A stretch of 64,000 nucleotides of DNA from Bacilli bacterium. Its GTDB lineage: Bacteria; Bacillota_I; Bacilli_A; RF39; UBA660. Where the stretch lies: contig JAFRAK010000007.1 in the NCBI GenBank assembly GCA_017405445.1, forward strand, positions 28,321 to 92,320, given 5' to 3'. How positions within the stretch are numbered: position 1 is the first letter of the stretch; every line of letters starts with the position of its first letter. Under the pieces are notes generated by a model. The model had not been told where the DNA came from and did not search any database. It saw nothing but the letters and a program-made list of their open reading frames with translations. Below are positions 5,778-47,314 of the stretch, one piece after another. The translations under genes were made by a program, and so were the position numbers.

Positions 5778-8654
5778 ATGAACAAATATAAGAATAAAAA
5801 GAATCTTTATTTAATAATGTTATATTTAATACTATCCTTAGGAATCGTATATGCAATACTACATGCAAATTTACAAATCAATGGTACAGCAAAGATTCAG
5901 TCAAATAATTGGGATGTACATTTTGCTAATATAGAAGTAAATGAGTCAAGTGTAGCTCTTAATCAAGATGATAGTGGAGCAACAATAGATCCAGATAATA
6001 ATTGTAAAATAGATTTTGAAGTAACATTATCTCTACCAGGAGACTTCTATGAATTTACAGTGGATGTTGAAAATTCTGGGACAATAGATGCTATGATTGG
6101 AACAATTTCTAAGACATTAAAGATAAATAACACAATTATAGATACAATACCAGAGTACTTGAATTATTCGATAACATATGATGATGGAATAGAAATACAG
6201 GAGCATCATAAATTATCAGCAGGAGAAAGTGAAACCTATCTTGTTCGATTAGAGTTTAAAACAGATATCGAAGAATTACCAAGTGCCACATCAATAGAAA
6301 TGAGTTTAGAACCACAATATATTCAAGCAGATGAAACAGCCATACAAAAACCATTCAATGGATTTATTGATGGTAAGAGTTTCAATATTAAAGTTAAAAA
6401 ATTAGCTGGAGATGCCTCTGCAAAACAATATTCAGATAATACTAGTATTTCAGCTTTTGTGAGATCAAATAATCCACCAGATATTAATTCCATGACGGAA
6501 GATAATATCATTTCAACAGGAGAAGATGTTATTTATGCTTGGATACAAGGAAGTGCATTATACTATTATACAGAATGTGAAAGACCATTATTAAATCCAG
6601 ATGCTTCAGAGATGTTTCGTAATTTTCTTAATTTGTCATATTTACAATTAGATACAATTGATACATCTAAAACAAAAGATATGTCTTATATGTTTATGGA
6701 TACTGGAGATAATGCTACAGGAATATACTTACCAATTGCTAACTGGGATACTTCTAATGTAAAAAAGATGAGACTGATGTTTTATTCTATTGCAACATCA
6801 GCATCAAGTTTTTCACTAGACTTATCAAACTGGGATGTATCAAATGTTACAGATATGTATGGAGCTTTTGAATCGATTGCTTCAGATATGGCTGGATCAT
6901 TTTATTTAAATCTTACTGGCTGGAATACATCCAAGGTAGAAAATATGGACTACATGTTTATGCAAACAGCTTATAGAGCTTCAAAATGGGAAGTTGTAGG
7001 ATTGGCAAACTGGGATGTTTCCAACGTAACTAGTATGTATGAAATGTTCGATCAAACTGGTGGAAAAGATCCTAATTTTAATTTGGACTTATCAAATTGG
7101 AAACCTTTACAAGTAACTAATATGCAGCAATTGTTTTATTTGGCCGGAGTGAATGCGACAACGTTTAATCTTAATCTACAGAATTGGAATGCACCTAAAG
7201 TCACAAATATGAAAATGATGTTTCTGCAAGCAGGAAGCAAGTCCACTTCTTTCACAATAAATATGACAAATTGGAATACGCCAAGTTTAACAGATATTAG
7301 TGAGATGTTTAATTATATAGGACCTTCTGCAACTGATTTTAATATTATTGGTTTATCTAGTTTAGATACTCAAAACGTCACAAATATGTATAAAGTTTTT
7401 TATGGTTCAGGTCAACATGCAACATCTTATACATTAGATGTTGCAACATGGAACACTTCAAATGTTACAAATATGTATAGTACATTTGAGCAAAGTGGAT
7501 ATTATTCTCCAACTTATAATGTAGATATTTCAAACTGGAACACTTCAAATGTCACGAATATGAATAGGATGTTTTATAGTGCAGGAAGAAATGCCACAAC
7601 ATGGAGTATCGGAGATATATCAAACTGGAACACCTCAAAAGTAACTACAACGATAGAAATGTTTTCTTATGCTGGAAATAACACAACAACTTGGAATATA
7701 GGAGATATATCAAACTGGAACACCTCAAAAGTCACCAATATGTCTTCTATGTTTTATTGTGCAGGCTATAAAGCCACAACATTTCATTTAGACTTATCAA
7801 ATTGGAATACTTCTGAGGTTACTTATATGTCATCTATGTTCAACAGTGCAGGCTATAAATCCACAACATGGAGTATTGGAGATATATCAAACTGGGACAC
7901 CTCAAAAGTCACTGATATGTATAGTATGTTTGAGTATGCAGGATATAATGCCACAACATTTAATTTAGATTTATCAAATTGGAATACTTCTGAGGTTATT
8001 TATATGTCATCTATGTTCAACAGTGCAGGCTATAAAGCTACAACATGGAGTATTGGAGATTTATCAAATTGGGATACCTCAAAAGTCACTTCAATGAGAT
8101 CTATGTTTTCTTATGCCGGGTATAATGCCACAACATTTAGTTTAAATATATCAAACTGGAATACATCAAAAGTAACTGATATGTCATCTATGTTTTCTAA
8201 TGCCGGTTATAATGTCTCAACTTTTAATTTAAGTATATCAAATTGGAACACCTCAAAAGTAACTAATATGTATTCAATGTTTGAATATGCAGGAAGAAGT
8301 GCAACAACATGGAGTATTGGAGATTTATCAAACTGGGATACCTCAAAAGTAACTAATATGTCTTATATGTTTTATTATGCAGGGTATAGTTCCACAACAT
8401 GGAATAGTATAGGAACTTTAAAAGTATATGCCACGAATATTGGCAATATGTTCAACTATTGTATAAATGCAAAAGCTACATTAAAAATTTATAATAATCC
8501 TACAAATTATAGTGCTGTGTTTTCGAGTGCCGCTACAGCATCAGGTAGTTTAATTACCGTAGATTACACAAGTGTTGTTACAGATATTGATAAAATTATT
8601 GCGAAAAAGTCTAGTGATTCTAATGTTGTGAAAGGAAGTTTATTTACTGCATAG
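5778..8654 (+). CDS. Paralog-family surface protein A: conserved ~185-aa N-terminal signal-anchor plus domain, then long DUF285/BspA-type leucine-rich repeat array
   Basis: N-terminus about 65-75% identical to ORFs at 31519, 39625 and 45482. About 26-30-aa repeats of the form NWDTSKVTNMSSMF...AGYNATTF. Confidence 0.8.
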   Translation: MNKYKNKKNLYLIMLYLILSLGIVYAILHANLQINGTAKIQSNNWDVHFANIEVNESSVALNQDDSGATIDPDNNCKIDFEVTLSLPGDFYEFTVDVENSGTIDAMIGTISKTLKINNTIIDTIPEYLNYSITYDDGIEIQEHHKLSAGESETYLVRLEFKTDIEELPSATSIEMSLEPQYIQADETAIQKPFNGFIDGKSFNIKVKKLAGDASAKQYSDNTSISAFVRSNNPPDINSMTEDNIISTGEDVIYAWIQGSALYYYTECERPLLNPDASEMFRNFLNLSYLQLDTIDTSKTKDMSYMFMDTGDNATGIYLPIANWDTSNVKKMRLMFYSIATSASSFSLDLSNWDVSNVTDMYGAFESIASDMAGSFYLNLTGWNTSKVENMDYMFMQTAYRASKWEVVGLANWDVSNVTSMYEMFDQTGGKDPNFNLDLSNWKPLQVTNMQQLFYLAGVNATTFNLNLQNWNAPKVTNMKMMFLQAGSKSTSFTINMTNWNTPSLTDISEMFNYIGPSATDFNIIGLSSLDTQNVTNMYKVFYGSGQHATSYTLDVATWNTSNVTNMYSTFEQSGYYSPTYNVDISNWNTSNVTNMNRMFYSAGRNATTWSIGDISNWNTSKVTTTIEMFSYAGNNTTTWNIGDISNWNTSKVTNMSSMFYCAGYKATTFHLDLSNWNTSEVTYMSSMFNSAGYKSTTWSIGDISNWDTSKVTDMYSMFEYAGYNATTFNLDLSNWNTSEVIYMSSMFNSAGYKATTWSIGDLSNWDTSKVTSMRSMFSYAGYNATTFSLNISNWNTSKVTDMSSMFSNAGYNVSTFNLSISNWNTSKVTNMYSMFEYAGRSATTWSIGDLSNWDTSKVTNMSYMFYYAGYSSTTWNSIGTLKVYATNIGNMFNYCINAKATLKIYNNPTNYSAVFSSAATASGSLITVDYTSVVTDIDKIIAKKSSDSNVVKGSLFTA
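7794..8100 (+). repeat. Intragenic higher-order tandem duplication (period 177 bp, two LRR units) with near-identical DNA copies
   Basis: ttatcaaattggaatacttctgaggtt... block recurs at 7794 and 7971 with only a few substitutions over about 130 nt. Confidence 0.6.
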
Positions 8655-13890: not shown

Positions 13891-15912
13891 ATGCAAGAAG
13901 GAAGTGGTTGTGTGGCAGAGCTCAAAGATGTCAAAGGAATAGGACCAAAATCTCTTTCTTTATTAAATAAAATAGGAATTAATACCATAGAAGATTTAGT
14001 AACTCATTATCCATTTCGTTATGATATTTTAGAAAGAAATGATCTAACTAAAATAGAAGATGGAGAAAAAATTATTATTGATGGAAAAGTAGAAAGTGTT
14101 CCTATTTTAATGAGATTTAAACAAGGTCTAAATAAAATGAATTTTAGATTAGTAACACAATCAGGTGTTGTAGGAGTATCTATCTTTAATAGAGCATTTT
14201 TAAAGAATCAATTAAGTGTAGGTACTGGTATTACTGTAATTGGTAAATTAGATAAATCTAAAAATGTTATTACTGCAAGTGAGATTAAAATGGATTTATT
14301 ATCTAATAGTGTAAAAATTGAACCTGTATATCATTGTACTAGTGGATTAACAAATAAGAATATGTCTACATATATTAATATGGCATTATTAATGTATGGA
14401 AAAACAATACCAGATTATATTCCAGAGGAATATATTGAAAAGTATAATTTTTTAAATAAAAAGACTTCTCTAAATGTAATTCATAATCCAAGTACTGCTG
14501 ATAAATTAAAAGAAGTAACGATAAGATTAAAATATGAAGAGTTATTTGAATTCATGTTTAAGATTAATTATTTAAAACAATTAAATAAGATTAAGAATAA
14601 TGGTTTAGAAAGAGTCATTGATCATGCTGAAATAGAAAAATTTATGAAGAAAATACCATTTGATTTAACAAATGACCAAAAAAAAGCTGTAGATGAAATA
14701 ATTACAGATTTAGAAGCACCACATCGTATGAATCGATTACTTCAAGGAGATGTTGGATCTGGTAAAACAATTGTTTCTTTTATTGGAATGTATGCCAATT
14801 ATTTAAGTGGATATCAAAGTGCTTTAATGGCACCTACTGAAATACTTGCAACTCAACATTATAATAACTTAGTAGAGTTTTTAAAAGGAACAAAAGTAAA
14901 AGTAGCATTATTAACTGGTTCAACACCAAAAAAAGAAAAAACTGAAATCTATAATGGATTAAAAGAGGGAAGTATTCATATGGTAATTGGTACTCATGCT
15001 TTAATCCAAGATGAAGTAGATTATTATAATCTAGGTTTAGTAATTACTGATGAACAACATCGTTTTGGAGTTCATCAAAGAGCTAATTTACAAAATAAAG
15101 GAAAAACACCAGATGTTTTATATATGAGCGCAACACCAATTCCAAGAACTTATGCACTCACAATCTTTGGAGATATGGATGTATCAACAATTAAAGAAAG
15201 ACCAAAAGGTAGACAAAAAATAGATACAGTGGTTAAAAAAACAAGCGAAATTAAAGAAGTATTAGAGTTGATGTATAAAGAATTAAAAGAAGGACATCAA
15301 GTTTATGTAATTGCTCCATTAATTGAAGAAAGTGAAAATAGTGATCTAACAACAGTAAATGAGTTAAAGGATCAAATGAAATTAGCTTTCAAAGATTTAT
15401 ATAAGATTGATATTGTACATGGTAAGATGGCTGGAGGAGCAAAAGACATTATCATGGAACAATTTAAAGAGAATAAAGTTCAAATATTAATATCTACTAC
15501 GGTAGTAGAAGTAGGAGTAGATGTACCAAATGCTACAACAATGGTTATTTTTGATGCAGATCGCTTTGGATTATCAACTCTACATCAATTACGAGGAAGA
15601 GTAGGTAGAGGAACATCAAAAAGTCAATGTATCTTAATAAGTGATAGTGATACAGAAAGATTAAAAATCATGGAAAGAGAAGATGATGGATTTATCATTT
15701 CTGAAGAAGATTTTAAATTAAGAGGACATGGTGATTTATTTGGAACAAAACAATCAGGAGATATGTCATTTAAAATTGCAAGTATTAAAAATGATTATAA
15801 AATCTTACTACAAGCAAAAAAAGATTCCAAAGAATACTTATTAAATAAAGAGACAGATCAAGATGAATTAAAAATAAAACTAATCCATTCGATCTCAACT
15901 AAAGAATCATAA
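13891..15912 (+). CDS. recG: ATP-dependent DNA helicase RecG
   Basis: Helicase motifs LLQGDVGSGKT, DEQHRFGV, LRGRVGRG. Wedge/N-terminal HhH region. The true start may be the in-frame GTG at 13912, because ATG 13891 directly abuts a TGATATAAT -10 element. Confidence 0.88.
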   Translation: MQEGSGCVAELKDVKGIGPKSLSLLNKIGINTIEDLVTHYPFRYDILERNDLTKIEDGEKIIIDGKVESVPILMRFKQGLNKMNFRLVTQSGVVGVSIFNRAFLKNQLSVGTGITVIGKLDKSKNVITASEIKMDLLSNSVKIEPVYHCTSGLTNKNMSTYINMALLMYGKTIPDYIPEEYIEKYNFLNKKTSLNVIHNPSTADKLKEVTIRLKYEELFEFMFKINYLKQLNKIKNNGLERVIDHAEIEKFMKKIPFDLTNDQKKAVDEIITDLEAPHRMNRLLQGDVGSGKTIVSFIGMYANYLSGYQSALMAPTEILATQHYNNLVEFLKGTKVKVALLTGSTPKKEKTEIYNGLKEGSIHMVIGTHALIQDEVDYYNLGLVITDEQHRFGVHQRANLQNKGKTPDVLYMSATPIPRTYALTIFGDMDVSTIKERPKGRQKIDTVVKKTSEIKEVLELMYKELKEGHQVYVIAPLIEESENSDLTTVNELKDQMKLAFKDLYKIDIVHGKMAGGAKDIIMEQFKENKVQILISTTVVEVGVDVPNATTMVIFDADRFGLSTLHQLRGRVGRGTSKSQCILISDSDTERLKIMEREDDGFIISEEDFKLRGHGDLFGTKQSGDMSFKIASIKNDYKILLQAKKDSKEYLLNKETDQDELKIKLIHSISTKES

Positions 15913-15928
15913 CAAGGAGGAAATGATT

Positions 15929-16285
15929 ATGGATATTGAAACATTTTTAGGAAATAAAGGATTTGAAATAGGAACAGATGGGGCAAAATACTTTTCTATG
16001 TTGTTAGAGGATGTTATCTTTGCCCTAGAAGAAAATATACCAAAAGAGATAATAAGAGAAAAAGTTATCCCATCTGCAAAAGATTTTTATTATCGTTTTC
16101 ACAGAGTATCAAAAAAACAATATTTAAATAAAATAAACAAGTTTTGTAATACAATAATTATTGATGGTAATAAGACTATTACGACAGAAAATGTAGATGA
16201 TATGTTACTTCGTTTAGGAACAAAATATATCAAAGAAAACAAAGCAGAGAAAGTAAAATCATATCAAAAATGTAAAAAGAAATAA
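15929..16285 (+). CDS. Hypothetical protein (about 118 aa)
   Basis: ORF after recG. AGGAGG RBS 8 nt upstream of ATG 15929. Confidence 0.5.
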   Translation: MDIETFLGNKGFEIGTDGAKYFSMLLEDVIFALEENIPKEIIREKVIPSAKDFYYRFHRVSKKQYLNKINKFCNTIIIDGNKTITTENVDDMLLRLGTKYIKENKAEKVKSYQKCKKK

Positions 16286-16401
16286 AATTTGAAAATGGAA
16301 TTGACTTTTTCAAATTTATACCTTATGATTAAAGTACGTGATAGTAAATATCACGTGAGTAATATCTCTAACGACTTTATGTTAGAGTATATTCAACCGA
16401 A

Positions 16402-16480
16402 CCCCCTGAAGACACTGTCGAGAGACAGTGTCACTTTTGTTTATAAGGGTTTTCGAAACTTTGAATTTTTTCTAGATACC
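16402..16480. repeat. Repeat R1: CCCCCTGAAG + 9-bp perfect inverted repeat GACACTGTC-gaga-GACAGTGTC + TTTATAAGGGTTTT + ttttctagata tail
   Basis: Seen directly. Near-identical copies at 17030 and 19926. C5 run is conspicuous in this AT-rich DNA. Confidence 0.85.
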
Positions 16481-16554
16481 ATACAGATACCAAAAATTCG
16501 AAAATATTTGAAAATTTTAACTGTTTATTTTAGTTTGTATGCGTTTATGGTATT

Positions 16555-16583
16555 TTGACAAAGATATAAAAGTATGTTATTAT
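16555..16583 (+). promoter_or_regulatory. Sigma-A-type promoter (TTGACA-17 nt-TATTAT) driving a short + strand transcript
   Basis: Consensus -35 at 16555-16560, 17-nt spacer, -10 at 16578-16583. Confidence 0.6.
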
Positions 16584-16610
16584 GTATACAGATGAGGGAA
16601 ACTTCATAAA

Positions 16611-16660
16611 ATAAAAAAAGGGAACATTCAGTTTTCGCAAGTTGAATGTCTACCCTAAAT
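16611..16660 (-). terminator. Minus-strand rho-independent terminator for the small-peptide mRNA
   Basis: On minus strand GGGuaGACAUUCA...UGAAUGUUCCC followed by U7. Confidence 0.6.
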
Positions 16661-16668
16661 TGGGTTTT

Positions 16669-16705
16669 GACACTTAATCAGTGCTGATTAGAGTGTCATT
16701 TTTTT
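16669..16705 (+). terminator. Plus-strand rho-independent terminator (also forms a hairpin in the minus-strand mRNA around its stop codon)
   Basis: GACACTTAATCAGtgCTGATTAGAGTGTC followed by T7. Confidence 0.65.
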
Positions 16706-16788
16706 ATTACTAAAACCAGTAAGGTTAAGAGTAGTAAAATGAGTGATATGTAGCGAAGCAACTTTATGTTGTATTCACGTTTTTTCAT
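16696..16788 (-). CDS. 30-aa hydrophobic peptide MKKREYNIKLLRYISLILLLLTLLVLVIKK, type I toxin-like small membrane protein
   Basis: Hand-translated. GGAGGT RBS 8 nt upstream. Own promoter and terminator. Below the 60-aa ORF-track threshold. Confidence 0.5.
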   Translation of the reverse strand: MKKREYNIKLLRYISLILLLLTLLVLVIKK

Positions 16789-16854
16789 TCTCTCAAACCT
16801 CCTCTCTATGATGGATTGGAGGTAGACACTCAACAACTAAATGTTCCTAAGATT

Positions 16855-16882
16855 AGTATATCAAATATATGTTCTATGTCAA
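16855..16882 (-). promoter_or_regulatory. Minus-strand sigma-A-type promoter (TTGACA-16 nt-TATACT) for the small-peptide gene
   Basis: Reverse complement of 16855-16882 reads TTGACAtagaacatatatttgaTATACT. Confidence 0.55.
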
Positions 16883-17029
16883 TATATGTTTCTAGATACC
16901 AAATCCAGATACTAATTGTAAAAAAACAAGATGTTTTTATAAACCTTAGTAAATTTAAAAAAATGAAAAAGCCTTATTTTATAAGACTTTAACTAATTAT
17001 TAAATTATTATGGGCTGGTTAATTAAATT

Positions 17030-17110
17030 CCCCCTGAAGAGACTGTCGAGAGACAGTGTCACTTTATTTTATAAGGGTTTTAAGAGTTGATAATCATTTT
17101 CTAGACGTAT
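17030..17110. repeat. Repeat R2 (copy of R1, one substitution in left arm of hairpin)
   Basis: CCCCCTGAAGAGACTGTCGAGAGACAGTGTCACTTTATTTTATAAGGGTTTT...ttttctagac. Confidence 0.85.
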
Positions 17111-17146
17111 TTCAAATATTTTGGTTATTTTATAAACTCTTTTTGT

Positions 17147-17155
17147 GTTATAATA
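17147..17155 (+). promoter_or_regulatory. Extended -10 promoter element TGtTATAAT
   Basis: Perfect TGnTATAAT. Would start a transcript near 17162. Confidence 0.45.
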
Positions 17156-17275
17156 AATATACAATTTACATTATCAAGAGCAAGGGAGAGAATTGGCTCA
17201 ATGATCTTGCACCAACCTATTTAGTTAGGTGGCAAAACCAACAAAGCATAGCTTTGAATGATAAATACGAATTAA

Positions 17276-17305
17276 CCTTATACGTTCGTATAAGGTTTTT
17301 CTTTT
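17276..17305 (+). terminator. Intrinsic terminator or attenuator about 30 nt upstream of the cassette's first RBS
   Basis: Perfect 20-nt palindrome CCTTATACGTTCGTATAAGG followed by TTTTTCTTTT. Confidence 0.55.
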
Positions 17306-17336
17306 CTTGATGGTGTCTATTGGGAAAGGAGAAATT

Positions 17337-17621
17337 ATGGAAAACTATATGAGTTACGGAAATGGAACTATAGGTGTTAGAGATGATGAATTATATGAGA
17401 ATTGGAATTCAGATTTTATTAAGTACCTAAAAGAAAGAGGTTTTAGTAACTGGGGACGCAAAGGTTATTTTTGTGGAAATGTATTATATGTTAATCTAAA
17501 TAGTAAAAGATATGCATTTAGTTGGCCTGGGGTTAAATTCACTGAACCTCTAGCATTAAAATATGTTTCAATTGAAGACTTTAAAAAAATATATGAAATA
17601 TTTGAAAAATATGATAAATAG
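17337..17621 (+). CDS. Hypothetical 95-aa protein, first gene of repeat-bounded cassette
   Basis: AAAGGAG RBS 5 nt upstream of ATG 17337. No recognisable motifs. Confidence 0.55.
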   Translation: MENYMSYGNGTIGVRDDELYENWNSDFIKYLKERGFSNWGRKGYFCGNVLYVNLNSKRYAFSWPGVKFTEPLALKYVSIEDFKKIYEIFEKYDK

Positions 17622-17674
17622 TAAATGATTGAAGATATATGTTATAATTTCTTATAAGAAATGGGTGATATTAT

Positions 17675-18451
17675 ATGACTTATTATAGTAACAGGCAAAT
17701 TAATAAGATGGTAAAAGATGCAATAGATAATTATTGCCCTCCTTCAACATATAAAAATAAAATGCCAACTGAGGAAGAATTTGGCATACAAGATATTGAT
17801 ATTGATCAAATAGAAAAAGAAAGAAACATATTTATGAAAAAAAAGGATAAATATGAAACTCTGATGGGTGCTTCGTTTATTTTTGGTTGTTTGCCTGCAT
17901 GGATAGTTTCATCTTTAGTTGGGCTATTATTTGAATTGTCAGACAATGCTTACATGTGGTTGTTTTCCGCTTCTTGGCTATTTTTAATTGTATTCTTCGG
18001 TATAATGAGTAGTAAAAAATATCCAAATGAAAAAACGTATGAAAAAACAAAAAAATATACTCAAGCAATATCTCAATATTATTGGTGGCAGGAAAGAAAG
18101 AAAAAGGATTTTTGGATTAAACTAGATGGAAGAAAGTTTGAAATTGAGGTAGCAAGAATATTTAAAAAATTAGGATATAAGACTAAAATATGCAAACAAG
18201 GTGGAGATGAAGGAGTAGATTTAGAAATAGAAAAAGAAGGAGTTTTAGAGATAGTTCAATGCAAAGCACATAAAGCAAAGGTATCTCCTTCAGTAGCAAG
18301 AGATTTATTAGGTACAATGTTAAATAAAAAAGTTAACCATTCATATTTAGTAACGTTAAATGGTGGTACTACTGGAACTATTGATTTTTGTAAAAAGAAC
18401 AACATTACTTTATGGGATATAGATGACATTATTAGATATGACAAAATGTAA
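17675..18451 (+). CDS. Membrane-anchored (2 TM) protein with C-terminal Mrr-like restriction-endonuclease catalytic domain
   Basis: FEIEVARIFKKLGYKTKICKQGGDEGVDLEIE...EIVQCKAHKAKV matches the Mrr_cat pattern (GxDxGxD...QCK). Two hydrophobic helices at residues about 65-115. Confidence 0.7.
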   Translation: MTYYSNRQINKMVKDAIDNYCPPSTYKNKMPTEEEFGIQDIDIDQIEKERNIFMKKKDKYETLMGASFIFGCLPAWIVSSLVGLLFELSDNAYMWLFSASWLFLIVFFGIMSSKKYPNEKTYEKTKKYTQAISQYYWWQERKKKDFWIKLDGRKFEIEVARIFKKLGYKTKICKQGGDEGVDLEIEKEGVLEIVQCKAHKAKVSPSVARDLLGTMLNKKVNHSYLVTLNGGTTGTIDFCKKNNITLWDIDDIIRYDKM

Positions 18452-18484
18452 TCTATATTAATTATTTGTATGGAGGTGATAGCA

Positions 18485-19792
18485 ATGAGAAAATATGAGT
18501 TACAATTTGATGATGAAAGTATTAAAGATACTATCCACTCTAATACTTTAAATAGAAATGATAAACTATTTAATTTAATAAGATTATTAAATAGTATGAA
18601 TGAAAATCATATTATTTCTATTGATGGTGGTTGGGGAAGTGGAAAAACTTTTTTTATAAAGCAACTTATATATTTAAAAAACAATCATAATGATTGTAAT
18701 TTTCTAAAGCAAGATGTTCATGATATTATTACTGAATTTAATGAAAAATATATAGTAGTTTATTATAACGCTTGGGAAAATGATGATCATAATGATCCGA
18801 TAGAATCAATTATTTATAATATATTAAATATTTTACCAAAGTACTCAGATACATTTATTGATACATCAGAGTTATTTGATTTAATAAAGAAATCCTGGAT
18901 GAATTTTATTGAAGTTTCATCACTAGGAATTGTTAAAACTGAAGATGTCAAAGAAATGAAAACTTTTTCTGATTTGGCAGATTCTGTTAATACAATAGAG
19001 GAAAAGAAAAATGCAGTTTTGACTTTGTTAAGTCATATTACTAAGTATAAAAGAATTCTTTTAATAATTGATGAGTTGGATAGATGTAAACCAGATTTTG
19101 CTGTTAAATCAATTGAAACCATAAAACATTTTTATGATAGTCCTAAAATAAGTACAATTTTTGTTACAAATAATAATCAGTTATCTAAGACAATAAAAAA
19201 ATTTTATGGTAATGAATTCGATGGATATAGTTATTTGAATAAAATATACGATGCAGTTATACCTTTACATTGTGATAATATTGAGCAATACTCTAAAAAG
19301 TATTTAGATATTAATCATAGTACTAATCTTCCTGAAGATGTTTCTATTTTTCTATTTAAACATTATAACCTTTCATATCGTGAATGTAATAAATATATGT
19401 CTATGTATAGGTTAATTGAGCCTTATATCCATTGGAAAGATAAATTTTCTGAAAATAATAGTAATATTGATATTTCATGTATATTTGTTCCTATAGCTAT
19501 TGCTTTAAAGGTAAAAGATATATACTTATATGAAAGATTTATACAAAATGATGCTTCAGATATCTTAAAGGAACTTTTTGATGATGATAAATTAAATAGC
19601 ACCAATGGTAATTTATATAGATGGTTTTGTGAAATCTTCAAAGTTAAAGAAGGAATGGAATTATCTAATAGAGTTGCTAATAGATATAAGGAAATATTTA
19701 GTGTAGATAATGTTTATGATTATAATAAATATCCTTATATGGAAGCTATATCTATGCTAGGTAATCTTATTCATATTGAAGATGATAAATAA
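18485..19792 (+). CDS. KAP-family P-loop NTPase
   Basis: Walker A ISIDGGWGSGKTFF. Walker B plus KAP signature LLIIDELDRCKPDFAVK. GGAGGTGA RBS. Confidence 0.8.
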   Translation: MRKYELQFDDESIKDTIHSNTLNRNDKLFNLIRLLNSMNENHIISIDGGWGSGKTFFIKQLIYLKNNHNDCNFLKQDVHDIITEFNEKYIVVYYNAWENDDHNDPIESIIYNILNILPKYSDTFIDTSELFDLIKKSWMNFIEVSSLGIVKTEDVKEMKTFSDLADSVNTIEEKKNAVLTLLSHITKYKRILLIIDELDRCKPDFAVKSIETIKHFYDSPKISTIFVTNNNQLSKTIKKFYGNEFDGYSYLNKIYDAVIPLHCDNIEQYSKKYLDINHSTNLPEDVSIFLFKHYNLSYRECNKYMSMYRLIEPYIHWKDKFSENNSNIDISCIFVPIAIALKVKDIYLYERFIQNDASDILKELFDDDKLNSTNGNLYRWFCEIFKVKEGMELSNRVANRYKEIFSVDNVYDYNKYPYMEAISMLGNLIHIEDDK

Positions 19793-19925
19793 TAATTTTT
19801 AGGTTCTATTTAGGTTCTATAAATAGTAAAAAATCTTAAAAAATAGTAAAAAATTATAATACAGAGGGTTAACGATTATATTGATTTAACAGGTTTTAAT
19901 AAGCAAAAGGTCTATTAAATCGCGA

Positions 19926-20000
19926 CCCCCTGAAGACACTGTCGAGAGACAGTGTCACTTTATTTTATAATAGTTTGTGAAACTTTATATTTTTTCAAAT
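19926..20000. repeat. Repeat R3 (copy of R1)
   Basis: CCCCCTGAAGACACTGTCGAGAGACAGTGTCACTTTATTTTATAA...gaaactttatattttttc. Confidence 0.85.
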
Positions 20001-45481: not shown

Positions 45482-47314
45482 ATGAGAAGAAACAAGGAAC
45501 AAGTAACAATTTATTTTATATTATTTAGTTTAATTCTTATAGGGGTAGTCTACGCTATTTTACAAGCAAATCTACAAATTAATGGAATAGCGAAGATTAA
45601 ATCAAATACTTGGGATATTCATTTTGATAATATTCAGATTAATTCTAATAGTGTTTCTATTGGAGATGATGATTCAGCTGCAACAATTGATCCAAATGAT
45701 ACTAGTAAAGTTGATTTTTCTGTTACTTTATCTACTCCAGGAGACTTTTATGAATTTACTGTTGATGTAGTAAATGCAGGAACAATTGATGGAATGATTG
45801 AATTATTAACACAAGAGATGAAAGTAAATAATGAAGTAGTACAAAAAACACCAAATTATTTAAACTATATTGTTACTTATGAAGATGATTCTTCCATTTT
45901 ACTAAAACACTTATTGGAAGCCGGAGAAACATTAACATATAAAGTAAGATTAGAGTTCAAAACAGATATAGAAGAATTACCTGAAGCCGCAACAATCAAC
46001 TCTTCATTTGGAGTACAATTTGTACAAGCAGATGATACTGCAATAAAAAAGAGACCATATTATGCCTGTACTTTTGATGGAGATTTAGTACAAGGAGCAG
46101 AATATACAAATGGACAATATACATATCGGTATATGCAAGAATATGGCACTTGGAATTCTAGTTCTCAGTCTTATGAATGGAGAAATATAGATAATGATGG
46201 CTGGGGAGTCCATTTATCAGACACTTCTTCAACTGATTCTGTTACTTCAAGATTATGTACTTCTATCAATGATAAGCCTATTGTTTCTATGAGTTATATG
46301 TTTTATGAAAGTAAATCCACAAGCGTTGATACTACAAGTTTTAATACATCAAATGTAACAAATATGATTAATATGTTTAATGGATGTAGTAGTCTAACTG
46401 ATATTGATGTAACTAAATTTGATACATCTAACGTAACAAATATGATTAATATGTTTAATGGATGTAGTAGTCTAACTGATATTGATGTAACTAAATTTGA
46501 TACATCTAACGTAACAAATATGTTTGGAATGTTTGCAAATTGTAGTAATCTTAATGATATTGATGTGACTGAATTTGATACATCTAACGTAACAAATATG
46601 TCTGGAATGTTTGCAAATTGTAGTAATCTTAATGATATTGATGTGACTGAATTTGATACATCTAAAGTAACAAATATGAATGGAATGTTTTCAAATTGTA
46701 GTAATCTTAATGATATTGATGTGACTGAATTTGATACCTCTAATGTAACAAATATGGGTGGAATGTTTTCAGGTTGTAGTAGTTTAACAGAATTAGATTT
46801 AAGTGGTTTTGATTTAAGAGGAGCATCTTCCTTTGGTGCAATTGCAGGAAATATTTTTTATGGAACTTCTTCTTTAAAAAAACTAAATCTAAGTAATATG
46901 AAACTTCCACCTGATATGTCTCATGCTATATTTAGAAGTGGTGCAGCAAGTTCTTCACCAATAGAAGAAATAGATGTTACTGGATGGGATTTAAGTAATA
47001 CTACAAATGTTTCTGGAATGTTAGGCAGTTATGGTTCTAATGGATTTGGAGGAACAGGATTAAAAAGAATAATAGGTCTTGATACCTGGGATACTTCTCA
47101 TATTACAAATATGTCTTATATGTTTCAAGGACTATCTTCTTTAACAACATTAGACCTAAGTAGTTTTAATACTTCTAATGTCACTAATACAGATAACATG
47201 TTTGATGGATGTACATCAGTAACTACTGCTTATGGTAGAACTAATTCTGATATCACAAAATTTAATGCATCAAGTAATAAACCATCTAACATTACATTTA
47301 TACCAAAACCTTAA
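45482..47314 (+). CDS. Paralog-family surface protein D: conserved N-terminal domain plus DUF285/BspA-type LRR array
   Basis: N-terminus aligns with A, B and C. Repeats FDTSNVTNMxxMFxxCSxLxDIDVT. Confidence 0.8.
   Translation: MRRNKEQVTIYFILFSLILIGVVYAILQANLQINGIAKIKSNTWDIHFDNIQINSNSVSIGDDDSAATIDPNDTSKVDFSVTLSTPGDFYEFTVDVVNAGTIDGMIELLTQEMKVNNEVVQKTPNYLNYIVTYEDDSSILLKHLLEAGETLTYKVRLEFKTDIEELPEAATINSSFGVQFVQADDTAIKKRPYYACTFDGDLVQGAEYTNGQYTYRYMQEYGTWNSSSQSYEWRNIDNDGWGVHLSDTSSTDSVTSRLCTSINDKPIVSMSYMFYESKSTSVDTTSFNTSNVTNMINMFNGCSSLTDIDVTKFDTSNVTNMINMFNGCSSLTDIDVTKFDTSNVTNMFGMFANCSNLNDIDVTEFDTSNVTNMSGMFANCSNLNDIDVTEFDTSKVTNMNGMFSNCSNLNDIDVTEFDTSNVTNMGGMFSGCSSLTELDLSGFDLRGASSFGAIAGNIFYGTSSLKKLNLSNMKLPPDMSHAIFRSGAASSSPIEEIDVTGWDLSNTTNVSGMLGSYGSNGFGGTGLKRIIGLDTWDTSHITNMSYMFQGLSSLTTLDLSSFNTSNVTNTDNMFDGCTSVTTAYGRTNSDITKFNASSNKPSNITFIPKP
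46355..46744 (+). repeat. Five consecutive 78-bp tandem repeats inside gene D. Units 1 and 2 are 100% identical. Units 3-5 differ at a few positions
   Basis: Direct comparison of 46355-46432 vs 46433-46510 (identical) and following units. Confidence 0.85.

Follow-up and report, generated by a model that had tools for sequence, protein, structure and literature searches.

A candidate type I toxin-antitoxin-like module of a multi-copy family in gut and rumen Bacilli

Introduction

Two short transcription units converge downstream of recG in a genome of the RF39 lineage of Bacilli (Bacilli bacterium, assembly GCA_017405445.1), one with an open reading frame (ORF) for a hydrophobic peptide of 30 amino acids (aa) and the other predicted to yield a small non-coding RNA (sRNA) antisense to its 3′ end. 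The question raised by this locus is whether the pair is a chance arrangement in AT-rich DNA or a type I toxin-antitoxin (TA) module. It lies between copies of a 52-nucleotide (nt) terminator-like hairpin repeat in the stretch analyzed here, which comprises 64,000 nt of contig JAFRAK010000007.1 (positions 28,321 to 92,320; the window) with a G+C content of 27.8%. A type I TA-like module had been proposed in an earlier, sequence-only reading of this DNA, and comparative data support the proposal, the antisense promoter and terminator being conserved along with the peptide gene. We suggest that the locus is probably a type I TA-like module of a previously unannotated multi-copy family, with toxicity of the peptide as a candidate property.

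The conserved unit and its distribution

For the protein homologue search, the 30-aa peptide was extended in frame to a 46-aa ORF with a TTG start. Two metagenomic relatives were found, in both of which conservation starts exactly at the proposed ATG, and the DNA of both retains the leader, the ORF, both hairpins and the antisense promoter. A codon-degenerate pattern based on the peptide, scanned over the GTDB species representatives, gave the first sample of 33 loci, all from gut or rumen metagenome-assembled genomes (MAGs) labelled Bacilli, Erysipelotrichaceae, Tenericutes or Firmicutes, several of which have 2-3 module copies. Since the peptide-based pattern biased the first codon-position test, a second, ORF-independent sample was collected by scanning metagenomes with a pattern of the terminator arms only. 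Metagenomes of gut and rumen are rich in this family, the scan having produced at least 120 stretches; two or three module matches are present on 23 of the 120 stretches listed.

In the aligned copies, homology runs from the -35 box of the toxin promoter to the -35 box of the antisense promoter (window positions ~16885-16552, ~330 bp) and collapses outside; hence what is conserved is exactly the pair of convergent transcription units. With a profile of the block, 49 copies were identified in the DNA of the retrieved loci, including tandem arrays and divergent paralogues. The paralogous ORFs have diverged to about 45% identity, with peptides of 27-32 aa (for instance, MKTKTFIVKVLNLISIILFLLIILIIVIKKGI and MKKRTFIIKVLRLIAIILLLLTILVIAIKI), and a second peptide type is represented by MNKKDFLILSLVIIIFLLLFLLFIVLI and MSKKDFLISSLVLIILLLIALLFVILK; the ORF is retained and the RNA layout is unchanged in the divergent paralogues and in the second type alike. 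All elements recur in over 100 related copies, which places the module beyond chance. One copy, in locus L011 (733-420), is chimeric, with an ORF and post-stop hairpin of the window type, terminator and clamp arms of the second type, and a diverged leader, which suggests recombination between paralogues.

Nothing similar was found by a distant-mode DNA search of phage and plasmid collections, and two degenerate patterns had no match in viral contigs. Thus, nothing in these sets points to a phage or plasmid origin.

The peptide gene

Among the matches listed in the second sample, 58 of 77 distinct ORF-region sequences are intact at exactly 30 codons, starting with ATG (47 cases), GTG (8) or TTG (3). 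The remainder are frameshifted (14), interrupted by premature stops (3) or altered by in-frame indels (2); about 25% of copies are inactivated. The first sample has 24 copies with an ATG start, 8 with TTG and 5 with a disrupted start, three of the latter because of one additional A in the A-run behind the ATG. The ratio of nonsynonymous to synonymous substitution rates (dN/dS) of the 58 intact ORFs is 0.30, with dN below dS in 98% of 1520 pairs, and the entropies at codon positions 1, 2 and 3 are 0.71, 0.48 and 0.98, the third position being the most variable. The two alternative frames contain stops in 58/58 and 41/58 of the intact sequences. The 30-codon ORF is a real gene under purifying selection, and its conservation in related copies, which the sequence-only reading had set beforehand as a test of itself, is therefore borne out.

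The encoded peptide has the consensus M-K-K-R-x-[FY]-x-I-K-V-L-R-Y-I-[ST]-I-I-L-[LF]-L-L-[IT]-[IL]-[ML]-I-[VI]-V-I-K-K. In the window it is small (<60 aa), hydrophobic and apparently membrane-directed, with a single hydrophobic stretch (L10-I28) flanked by K/R residues. The invariant IKK C-terminus is explained by the last codons of the ORF, ATA-AAA-AAA-TGA, which are the complement of the U-tract of the sRNA terminator. In three loci (L017, L019 and L021), the run of six A residues directly after the ATG (16785-16780 in the window) is replaced by A7, and the ORF is out of frame; these copies may reflect slippage-prone inactivation or else an assembly error.

Signals and hairpins of the two transcripts

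All the parts named in the sequence-only reading were recovered at the positions given there (Table 1). On the minus strand, these are the TTGACA-16-TATACT promoter, the leader of about 60 nt, the GGAGGT ribosome-binding site, the 30-aa ORF and the stem plus U7 terminator, the latter confirmed by folding; on the plus strand, the TTGACA-17-TATTAT promoter and a transcript, then put at about 115 nt and predicted here at ~116 nt, that ends with a hairpin plus T7 and contains no ORF of 20 aa or longer. The claim that this transcript is fully complementary to the mRNA 3′ end holds for ~93 nt including the stop codon, but the first ~23 nt of the sRNA extend past the predicted mRNA 3′ end. The antisense RNA has, at the level of sequence, a promoter and terminator of its own and pairs with the toxin mRNA, its transcription being predicted.

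A promoter scan of 15800-17700 ranked the two promoters of the module first and second, each scoring 11/12 and having the extended -10 TG. By itself, the total of 17 promoter-like sites found in so AT-rich a region (vs 11.9 +/- 3.6 in shuffles) is unremarkable. In related copies, the antisense promoter has the TG-extended -10 in 34/35 cases and a score of at least 10 in 28/35; for the toxin promoter, the TG is present in 27/35 and the same-register score is at least 10 in 26/35.

The sRNA (117 nt as folded) has a predicted energy of -33.1 kcal/mol (z = -4.0). When 24 distinct sRNAs were analyzed by RNAalifold, the middle and terminator hairpins were recovered, with compensatory changes on both sides in 12 of 23 pairs. 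Further, the stability of a hairpin can be compared between strands, because each G·U pair turns into a C·A mismatch in the opposite strand. For the post-stop hairpin, that is, the sRNA terminator, the sRNA strand gives the higher stability in 18 of 22 variants (p = 0.0005), and likewise for the 5′ hairpin, which commonly has a GAAA loop, in 12 of 15 variants (p = 0.002). For the hairpin of the toxin terminator, the toxin strand had been expected to give the more stable form. The comparison ruled this out, stability being equal on both strands or favoring the sRNA strand, which indicates that this hairpin is a true stem-loop of the sRNA as well. Conservation extends to both promoters, to the two terminators and to each of the three sRNA hairpins.

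Predicted folding of the toxin mRNA and proposed competition for its 3′ end

The toxin mRNA has a predicted length of ~238 nt. In its minimum-energy fold, the first ~25 nt of the leader pair with both arms of the terminator, forming a 5′-3′ clamp, and beside the clamp a local anti-Shine-Dalgarno (anti-SD) sequence ACCUCC is predicted to pair with the SD sequence in an ACCUCC:GGAGGU helix. Forcing the terminator hairpin costs 16.5 kcal/mol (-75.9 in the closed and -59.4 kcal/mol in the open form). Thus, a structure of the mRNA restraining its translation, as in type I systems, is predicted for the module.

Pairing of the helices was computed across 29 family members. In the clamp, whose helices measure 13 and 11 bp, 93.9% of cells are paired in helix 1 (5′ end with the 3′ arm of the terminator; 5 pairs changed on both sides) and 93.4% in helix 2 (leader with the 5′ arm; 3 such pairs), which makes 8 double-sided changes together. 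The corresponding values are 94.5% and 2 pairs for the anti-SD/SD helix, 97% and 2 pairs for the terminator hairpin, and 85.6% and 1 pair for a hairpin formed by the leader only; in slid controls, ~43% of cells are paired, and the covariation figures are to be read as supportive counts rather than probabilities. Maintenance of both the terminator and the clamp fits a transcript that terminates first and refolds later.

Apart from a deleted loop, the leader (GGAACATTTAGTT-GTTGAGTGTCTACC) nearly copies the middle hairpin of the sRNA (GGAACATTCAGTT, loop TTCGCAA, GTTGAATGTCTACC), and this mimicry is present in every divergent paralogue. Hence the mRNA's 5′ end and the antisense RNA appear to be alternative partners of one 3′ element. 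When the two RNAs are cofolded, the duplex between them is favored by a net -88.4 kcal/mol; in the predicted complex, the leader is folded on itself and the SD is still paired.

Conservation within the module is highest in the clamp arms (mean identity 0.93-0.95) and in the ORF. The most variable parts are the spacer (0.41), the loop of the terminator (0.56) and the post-stop hairpin (0.65), all three inside the RNA-RNA overlap, and co-resident copies differ in these elements even at 97% ORF identity. We infer that the variable overlap elements carry the cognate specificity among co-resident copies.

Table 1. Predicted elements of the module and their positions in the window
Feature	Position	Strand	Details
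Toxin promoter	16855..16882	-	TTGACA 16882-16877, 16-nt spacer ending TGa, TATACT 16860-16855 (extended -10)
Toxin mRNA 5′ leader	16789..16848	-	60 nt; predicted transcription start ~16848
Clamp strand GGAACAUUUAG..GUUGAGUGUCUACC	16847-16822	-	overlaps anti-SD ACCUCC (16823-16818) by two bases
SD GGAGG	16802-16798	-	9 nt upstream of ATG at 16788
30-codon ORF MKKREYNIKLLRYISLILLLLTLLVLVIKK	16696..16788	-	stop TGA; basic N-terminus, one predicted transmembrane helix, KK C-terminus
Toxin mRNA terminator	16613..16655	-	stem-loop 16655-16620, then U7 16619-16613; both arms double as 3′ partners of the clamp
Antisense RNA promoter	16555..16583	+	TTGACA 16555-16560, 17-nt spacer ending TGt, TATTAT 16578-16583 (extended -10)
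Antisense sRNA, candidate antitoxin	16590..16705	+	predicted, ~116 nt; predicted transcription start ~16590
sRNA 5′ hairpin	16592-16607	+	GAAA loop; followed by an A-rich linker
sRNA middle hairpin	16620-16655	+	same positions as the toxin terminator stem-loop
sRNA terminator hairpin	16669-16697	+	then T7 16699-16705
RNA-RNA overlap	16613..16705		~93 bp of perfect complementarity: mRNA 3′ untranslated region, last three codons and stop codon

Comparison with known toxin-antitoxin families

The sequence-only reading had ascribed to the locus the architecture of bsrG/SR4 and txpA/RatA. The layout is indeed alike, but sequence membership in these or other described families was not found by profile (Pfam, NCBIfam) and Rfam searches. 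In Gram-positive families, the antisense RNA is on the 3′ side and overlaps the ORF, with the exception of Fst and SprA1 (T1TAdb; PMC8594479). The overlap at 16613-16705, spanning the stop and the last three codons, has the same 3′-overlap layout as TxpA/RatA, BsrE-G-H, YonT and SprG/SprF (PMC8594479).

Like the module, bsrG/SR4 and the BsrE-G-H/as-Bsr pairs of Bacillus subtilis consist of convergent genes with an antisense RNA that covers the 3′ end of the toxin mRNA together with the last part of the ORF. Duplex formation followed by RNase III-dependent decay, known for the bsrG/SR4 type (PMC8309996, PMC8594479), would be expected for the module also. Both have a small hydrophobic peptide with terminal lysines and an SD partly sequestered in the mRNA; the peptide is 38 aa long in the bsrG group and 30 aa here, and neither the peptides nor the RNAs are related in sequence. 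Whereas SR4 induces a change at the SD, the predicted complex of the module shows none. The module also differs from bsrG by the covarying 5′-3′ clamp and by the leader copying the antitoxin hairpin, and to our knowledge no such clamp has been reported for bsrG.

TxpA is a peptide of 59 aa, and txpA/RatA and sprG/SprF differ from the module in that no profile or Rfam match connects them. They share with it the Gram-positive layout with a 3′-overlapping antisense RNA over the end of the ORF (PMC8594479); the SprG1 peptides of 44 and 31 aa, produced from one frame (PMC8309996), compare with 30 aa in the module.

The Fst/RNAII system (par of pAD1) and the Fst/Ldr superfamily resemble the module in having a toxin of ~30 aa with one transmembrane helix, convergent transcription with overlapping 3′ ends, and a 5′ structure that sequesters the SD. 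However, the Fst motif APxxxGxxx, in which P11 and G15 are essential (PMC8309996), is missing here: the window peptide is devoid of P and G, and neither is among the six commonest residues at any position of the 58-sequence profile, which argues against membership in Fst/Ldr. Further, in par the productive RNA-RNA contacts are outside the overlap and the antisense RNA does not reach the ORF (PMC8594479), whereas in the module the overlap is itself the complementary region and covers the stop codon.

Finally, the hok/Sok and aapA/IsoA systems form a long-distance 5′-3′ interaction in the full-length toxin mRNA, with occlusion of the SD, that is conserved over many loci (PMC6733600), and an interaction of this type is predicted for the module. 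These systems are Gram-negative and their antisense RNAs target the 5′ part of the mRNA, whereas the antisense RNA of the module targets the 3′ partner of the clamp. In aapA the anti-SD is carried by the 3′ end, while in the module it is local and stacked on the clamp. As the sRNA resembles the leader instead of complementing it, the leader and the antitoxin would be competitors rather than partners.

Genomic context

Outside the window, the neighbors of the module are tRNA genes, germination genes or further module copies; they differ between genomes, which indicates a variable location, as expected for an accessory module. Sequences resembling tRNA, recognized by eye, adjoin the antisense-promoter side in L006, L007, L009, L012, L019 and L024.

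The 52-nt element is present in the window in three plus-strand copies, A (16402-16453), B (17030-17081) and C (19926-19976). It consists of CCCCCTGAAG, with a perfect 9-bp hairpin, a GAGA loop and a T-rich tail, and copies A and C share ~87 nt. Each copy closes one segment: a 120-aa ORF, the TA module, and a cassette with a riboswitch and genes of the Mrr and KAP families. A relative in L014 has compensatory changes in the stem and a GTGA loop, and the element is confined to a few close relatives (L011, L015, L025, L035 and L082). It has the appearance of a terminator specific to this lineage and placed where cassettes end.

Direct repeats TTCTAGATACCA..CAGATAC at 16470-16491 and 16890-16912, each containing a pair of GTATC half-sites at a distance of about 12 nt, are located just outside both ends of the module, and the GTATC motif also flanks the copies in L011, L014, L015 and L025, including the space between tandem copies. 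They could be a protein-binding site or the remnant of a tandem-array unit. The 52-nt hairpin repeat and the GTATC repeats were considered as a general part of the module or the mark of a mobile element, and this was rejected, as they are present only in a few close relatives and the flanks of other sub-families differ. For instance, in another sub-family (L004, L005, L007, L017, L024, L032 and L036), the module is bordered, at one end or at both, by an ~80-nt direct repeat, AACGTGTTTACGAAAAATCGGCACAAATCTATGAATTGAGA..CTCAATTACTTGAATAAAATATAACA.

Next to the module, the plus-strand segment 17168-19792 begins with an S-adenosylmethionine (SAM) riboswitch (RF00162, 64.6 bits) and a terminator at 17274-17297, upstream of a gene for a 94-aa protein (ATG at 17337). 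Behind this gene come those for a nuclease of the Mrr type (PADLOC PDC-S02) and for a KAP NTPase (PADLOC PDC-S20, 4e-43), both of candidate defense families. The riboswitch and the small protein are paired in all five informative metagenome contigs (5/5), with different downstream cargo, such as MTaX1 and a DNA methylase in L157 and L158. Speculatively, this may represent SAM-responsive control beside restriction or defense genes. In the MAG contig L035 (6769-6952), a homologue of window positions 19798-19966 directly abuts the toxin promoter. Compared with L035, the window is thus longer by ~2.9 kb (16885-19800), made up of repeat copy B, the SAM riboswitch and the genes for the 94-aa protein, Mrr and KAP. 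The module copy of L035 has no antisense promoter.

On the other side of the module, a promoter-like sequence TTGACT-17-TATGAT (16301-16329, plus strand) precedes two hairpins and repeat copy A with its T-tract. The region 16301-16440 could encode a separate small RNA of ~105 nt, for which no match was found in Rfam. Elsewhere in the window, two large ORFs contain in-frame tandem repeats, at 7523-8403 (unit of 90 nt, 9.9 copies) and 46340-46781 (78 nt, 5.7 copies), whose units may resemble the DUF285/BspA-type leucine-rich repeats of surface proteins; such repeats would be in keeping with a host of Mollicutes- or Erysipelotrichia-like kind.

Discussion

As judged from its sequence features, the family probably belongs with those Gram-positive type I TA systems whose antisense RNA overlaps the mRNA on the 3′ side, and it is new, having no match in Pfam, NCBIfam, Rfam or the searchable literature; the peptide strings are absent from that literature, in which no paper connects type I systems with Erysipelotrichaceae. 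Hallmarks of type I systems are present in the sequestration of the SD (as predicted), the covarying 5′-3′ fold-back, the tandem multi-copy arrays with divergent peptides and the frequent inactivated copies.

We propose the following mechanism. The sigma-A-type promoter on the minus strand would produce the ~238-nt mRNA for a 30-residue, single-helix membrane peptide, and the convergent promoter the ~116-nt antisense RNA, a perfect complement of the last ~93 nt of the mRNA. After termination, the mRNA would refold to the clamped form, which is expected to be poorly translatable, with both ends protected, and to accumulate as a stable pool. The sRNA and the leader would compete for one 3′ element. 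If the sRNA wins, the long duplex would be cut by a double-strand-specific RNase, the protective 3′ hairpin lost and the mRNA degraded, as in bsrG/SR4 and txpA/RatA; antisense-led decay of the bsrG mRNA by SR4 is described in PMC8309996. If the supply of the sRNA stops, the residual mRNA would be translated and the peptide would damage the membrane. The variable loops and stems of the overlap would give each co-resident copy its own cognate specificity.

A more specific and only tentative version of this scheme, which we consider somewhat doubtful, is that the leader acts in cis as a mimic of the antitoxin. The clamp would then keep the mRNA stable, silent and possibly shielded, the sRNA would displace it for decay, and the fast-evolving loops and stems of the overlap would set the specificity among tandem copies; such a design would be undescribed in Gram-positive type I systems.

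Several observations weigh against a type I module or against parts of the scheme. Searches of Pfam and NCBIfam (E <= 10) with the window peptide and five paralogues gave noise only, the best profile match being HokA (E = 0.12, 12 bits vs the cut-off of 89), and a search of Rfam 15 (E <= 10, both strands) gave nothing relevant for either RNA. The toxin-strand terminator is modest, at about -9 kcal/mol, and in the second peptide type its hairpin is much stronger on the sRNA strand. A simple terminator scanner called neither terminator of the module, because one stem is bulged and the other hairpin has a loop of 12 nt; both were confirmed by folding. The toxin mRNA fold of -75.9 kcal/mol has z = -8.0 and is matched by none of 200 shuffles (0/200), but shuffle controls overstate the significance, the structures having been derived from the window sequence and the copies being related. 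The SD is paired with the anti-SD in every predicted state, including the complex with the sRNA, so that the model leaves the activation of translation unexplained. Finally, the loop of the post-stop hairpin is exposed in the clamped form, and the clamp may thus fail to shield the mRNA from the sRNA.

As an alternative, the locus could be a small membrane protein gene under cis-antisense control rather than a TA pair; the peptide would have a benign role, for instance in regulating or forming part of a membrane complex, and its level would be tuned by the antisense RNA. All the data speak for a conserved peptide gene with a conserved antisense RNA, and not for toxicity, and the peptide matches no known toxin family in Pfam or NCBIfam. 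However, the module has several traits that are characteristic of type I toxins and out of the ordinary for housekeeping small proteins: diverging paralogues arrayed in tandem in a single genome, variable locations adjoining tRNA and defense genes, inactivation of about a quarter of the copies by frameshift, stop or loss of the start codon, and two layers of predicted translational silencing. These make a benign role unlikely.

It is also conceivable that the plus-strand RNA is the main product of the locus, for instance a trans-acting regulatory sRNA with three conserved hairpins, and that its overlap with the peptide gene is secondary. No other signal is conserved as well as the sRNA promoter, strand specificity is seen in the 5′ and terminator hairpins, and several partial matches keep the sRNA half with no obvious intact toxin (for instance, L007 4973-5117 and L023 4526-4394). 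Yet selection on the ORF is clearly purifying, the conserved block ends at the toxin promoter in all cases, the most conserved segments of the sRNA are the complements of the clamp arms of the mRNA, and no target in trans came to light, no search aimed at one having been made; we regard a primary role in trans as very improbable. Still less credible is a selfish repeat of the MITE type (miniature inverted-repeat transposable element), conserved by recent spread rather than by RNA or peptide function: the unit is multi-copy, about 330 bp long and variable in position, often beside tRNA genes, with an inverted repeat inside (leader vs terminator region) and direct repeats around the copies of some lineages, but its conserved block is bounded by two -35 boxes and not by inverted repeats, the flanking repeats are lineage-specific and unlike between sub-families, substitutions are codon-structured at the above dN/dS and compensatory in the stems, and even the most diverged paralogues keep the ORF and the RNA layout.

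With a type I TA-like module as the favored interpretation, the family bears on a class of systems that is badly under-annotated because both partners are tiny. A covariance or hidden Markov model built from these data would permit its systematic annotation. The carriers are largely uncultured low-GC Bacilli and Erysipelotrichaceae-like lineages. A well-delimited unit of 330 bp with many natural variants is suited to the study of antisense specificity and of Gram-positive mRNA control by fold-back, as well as of the link between type I modules and defense islets.

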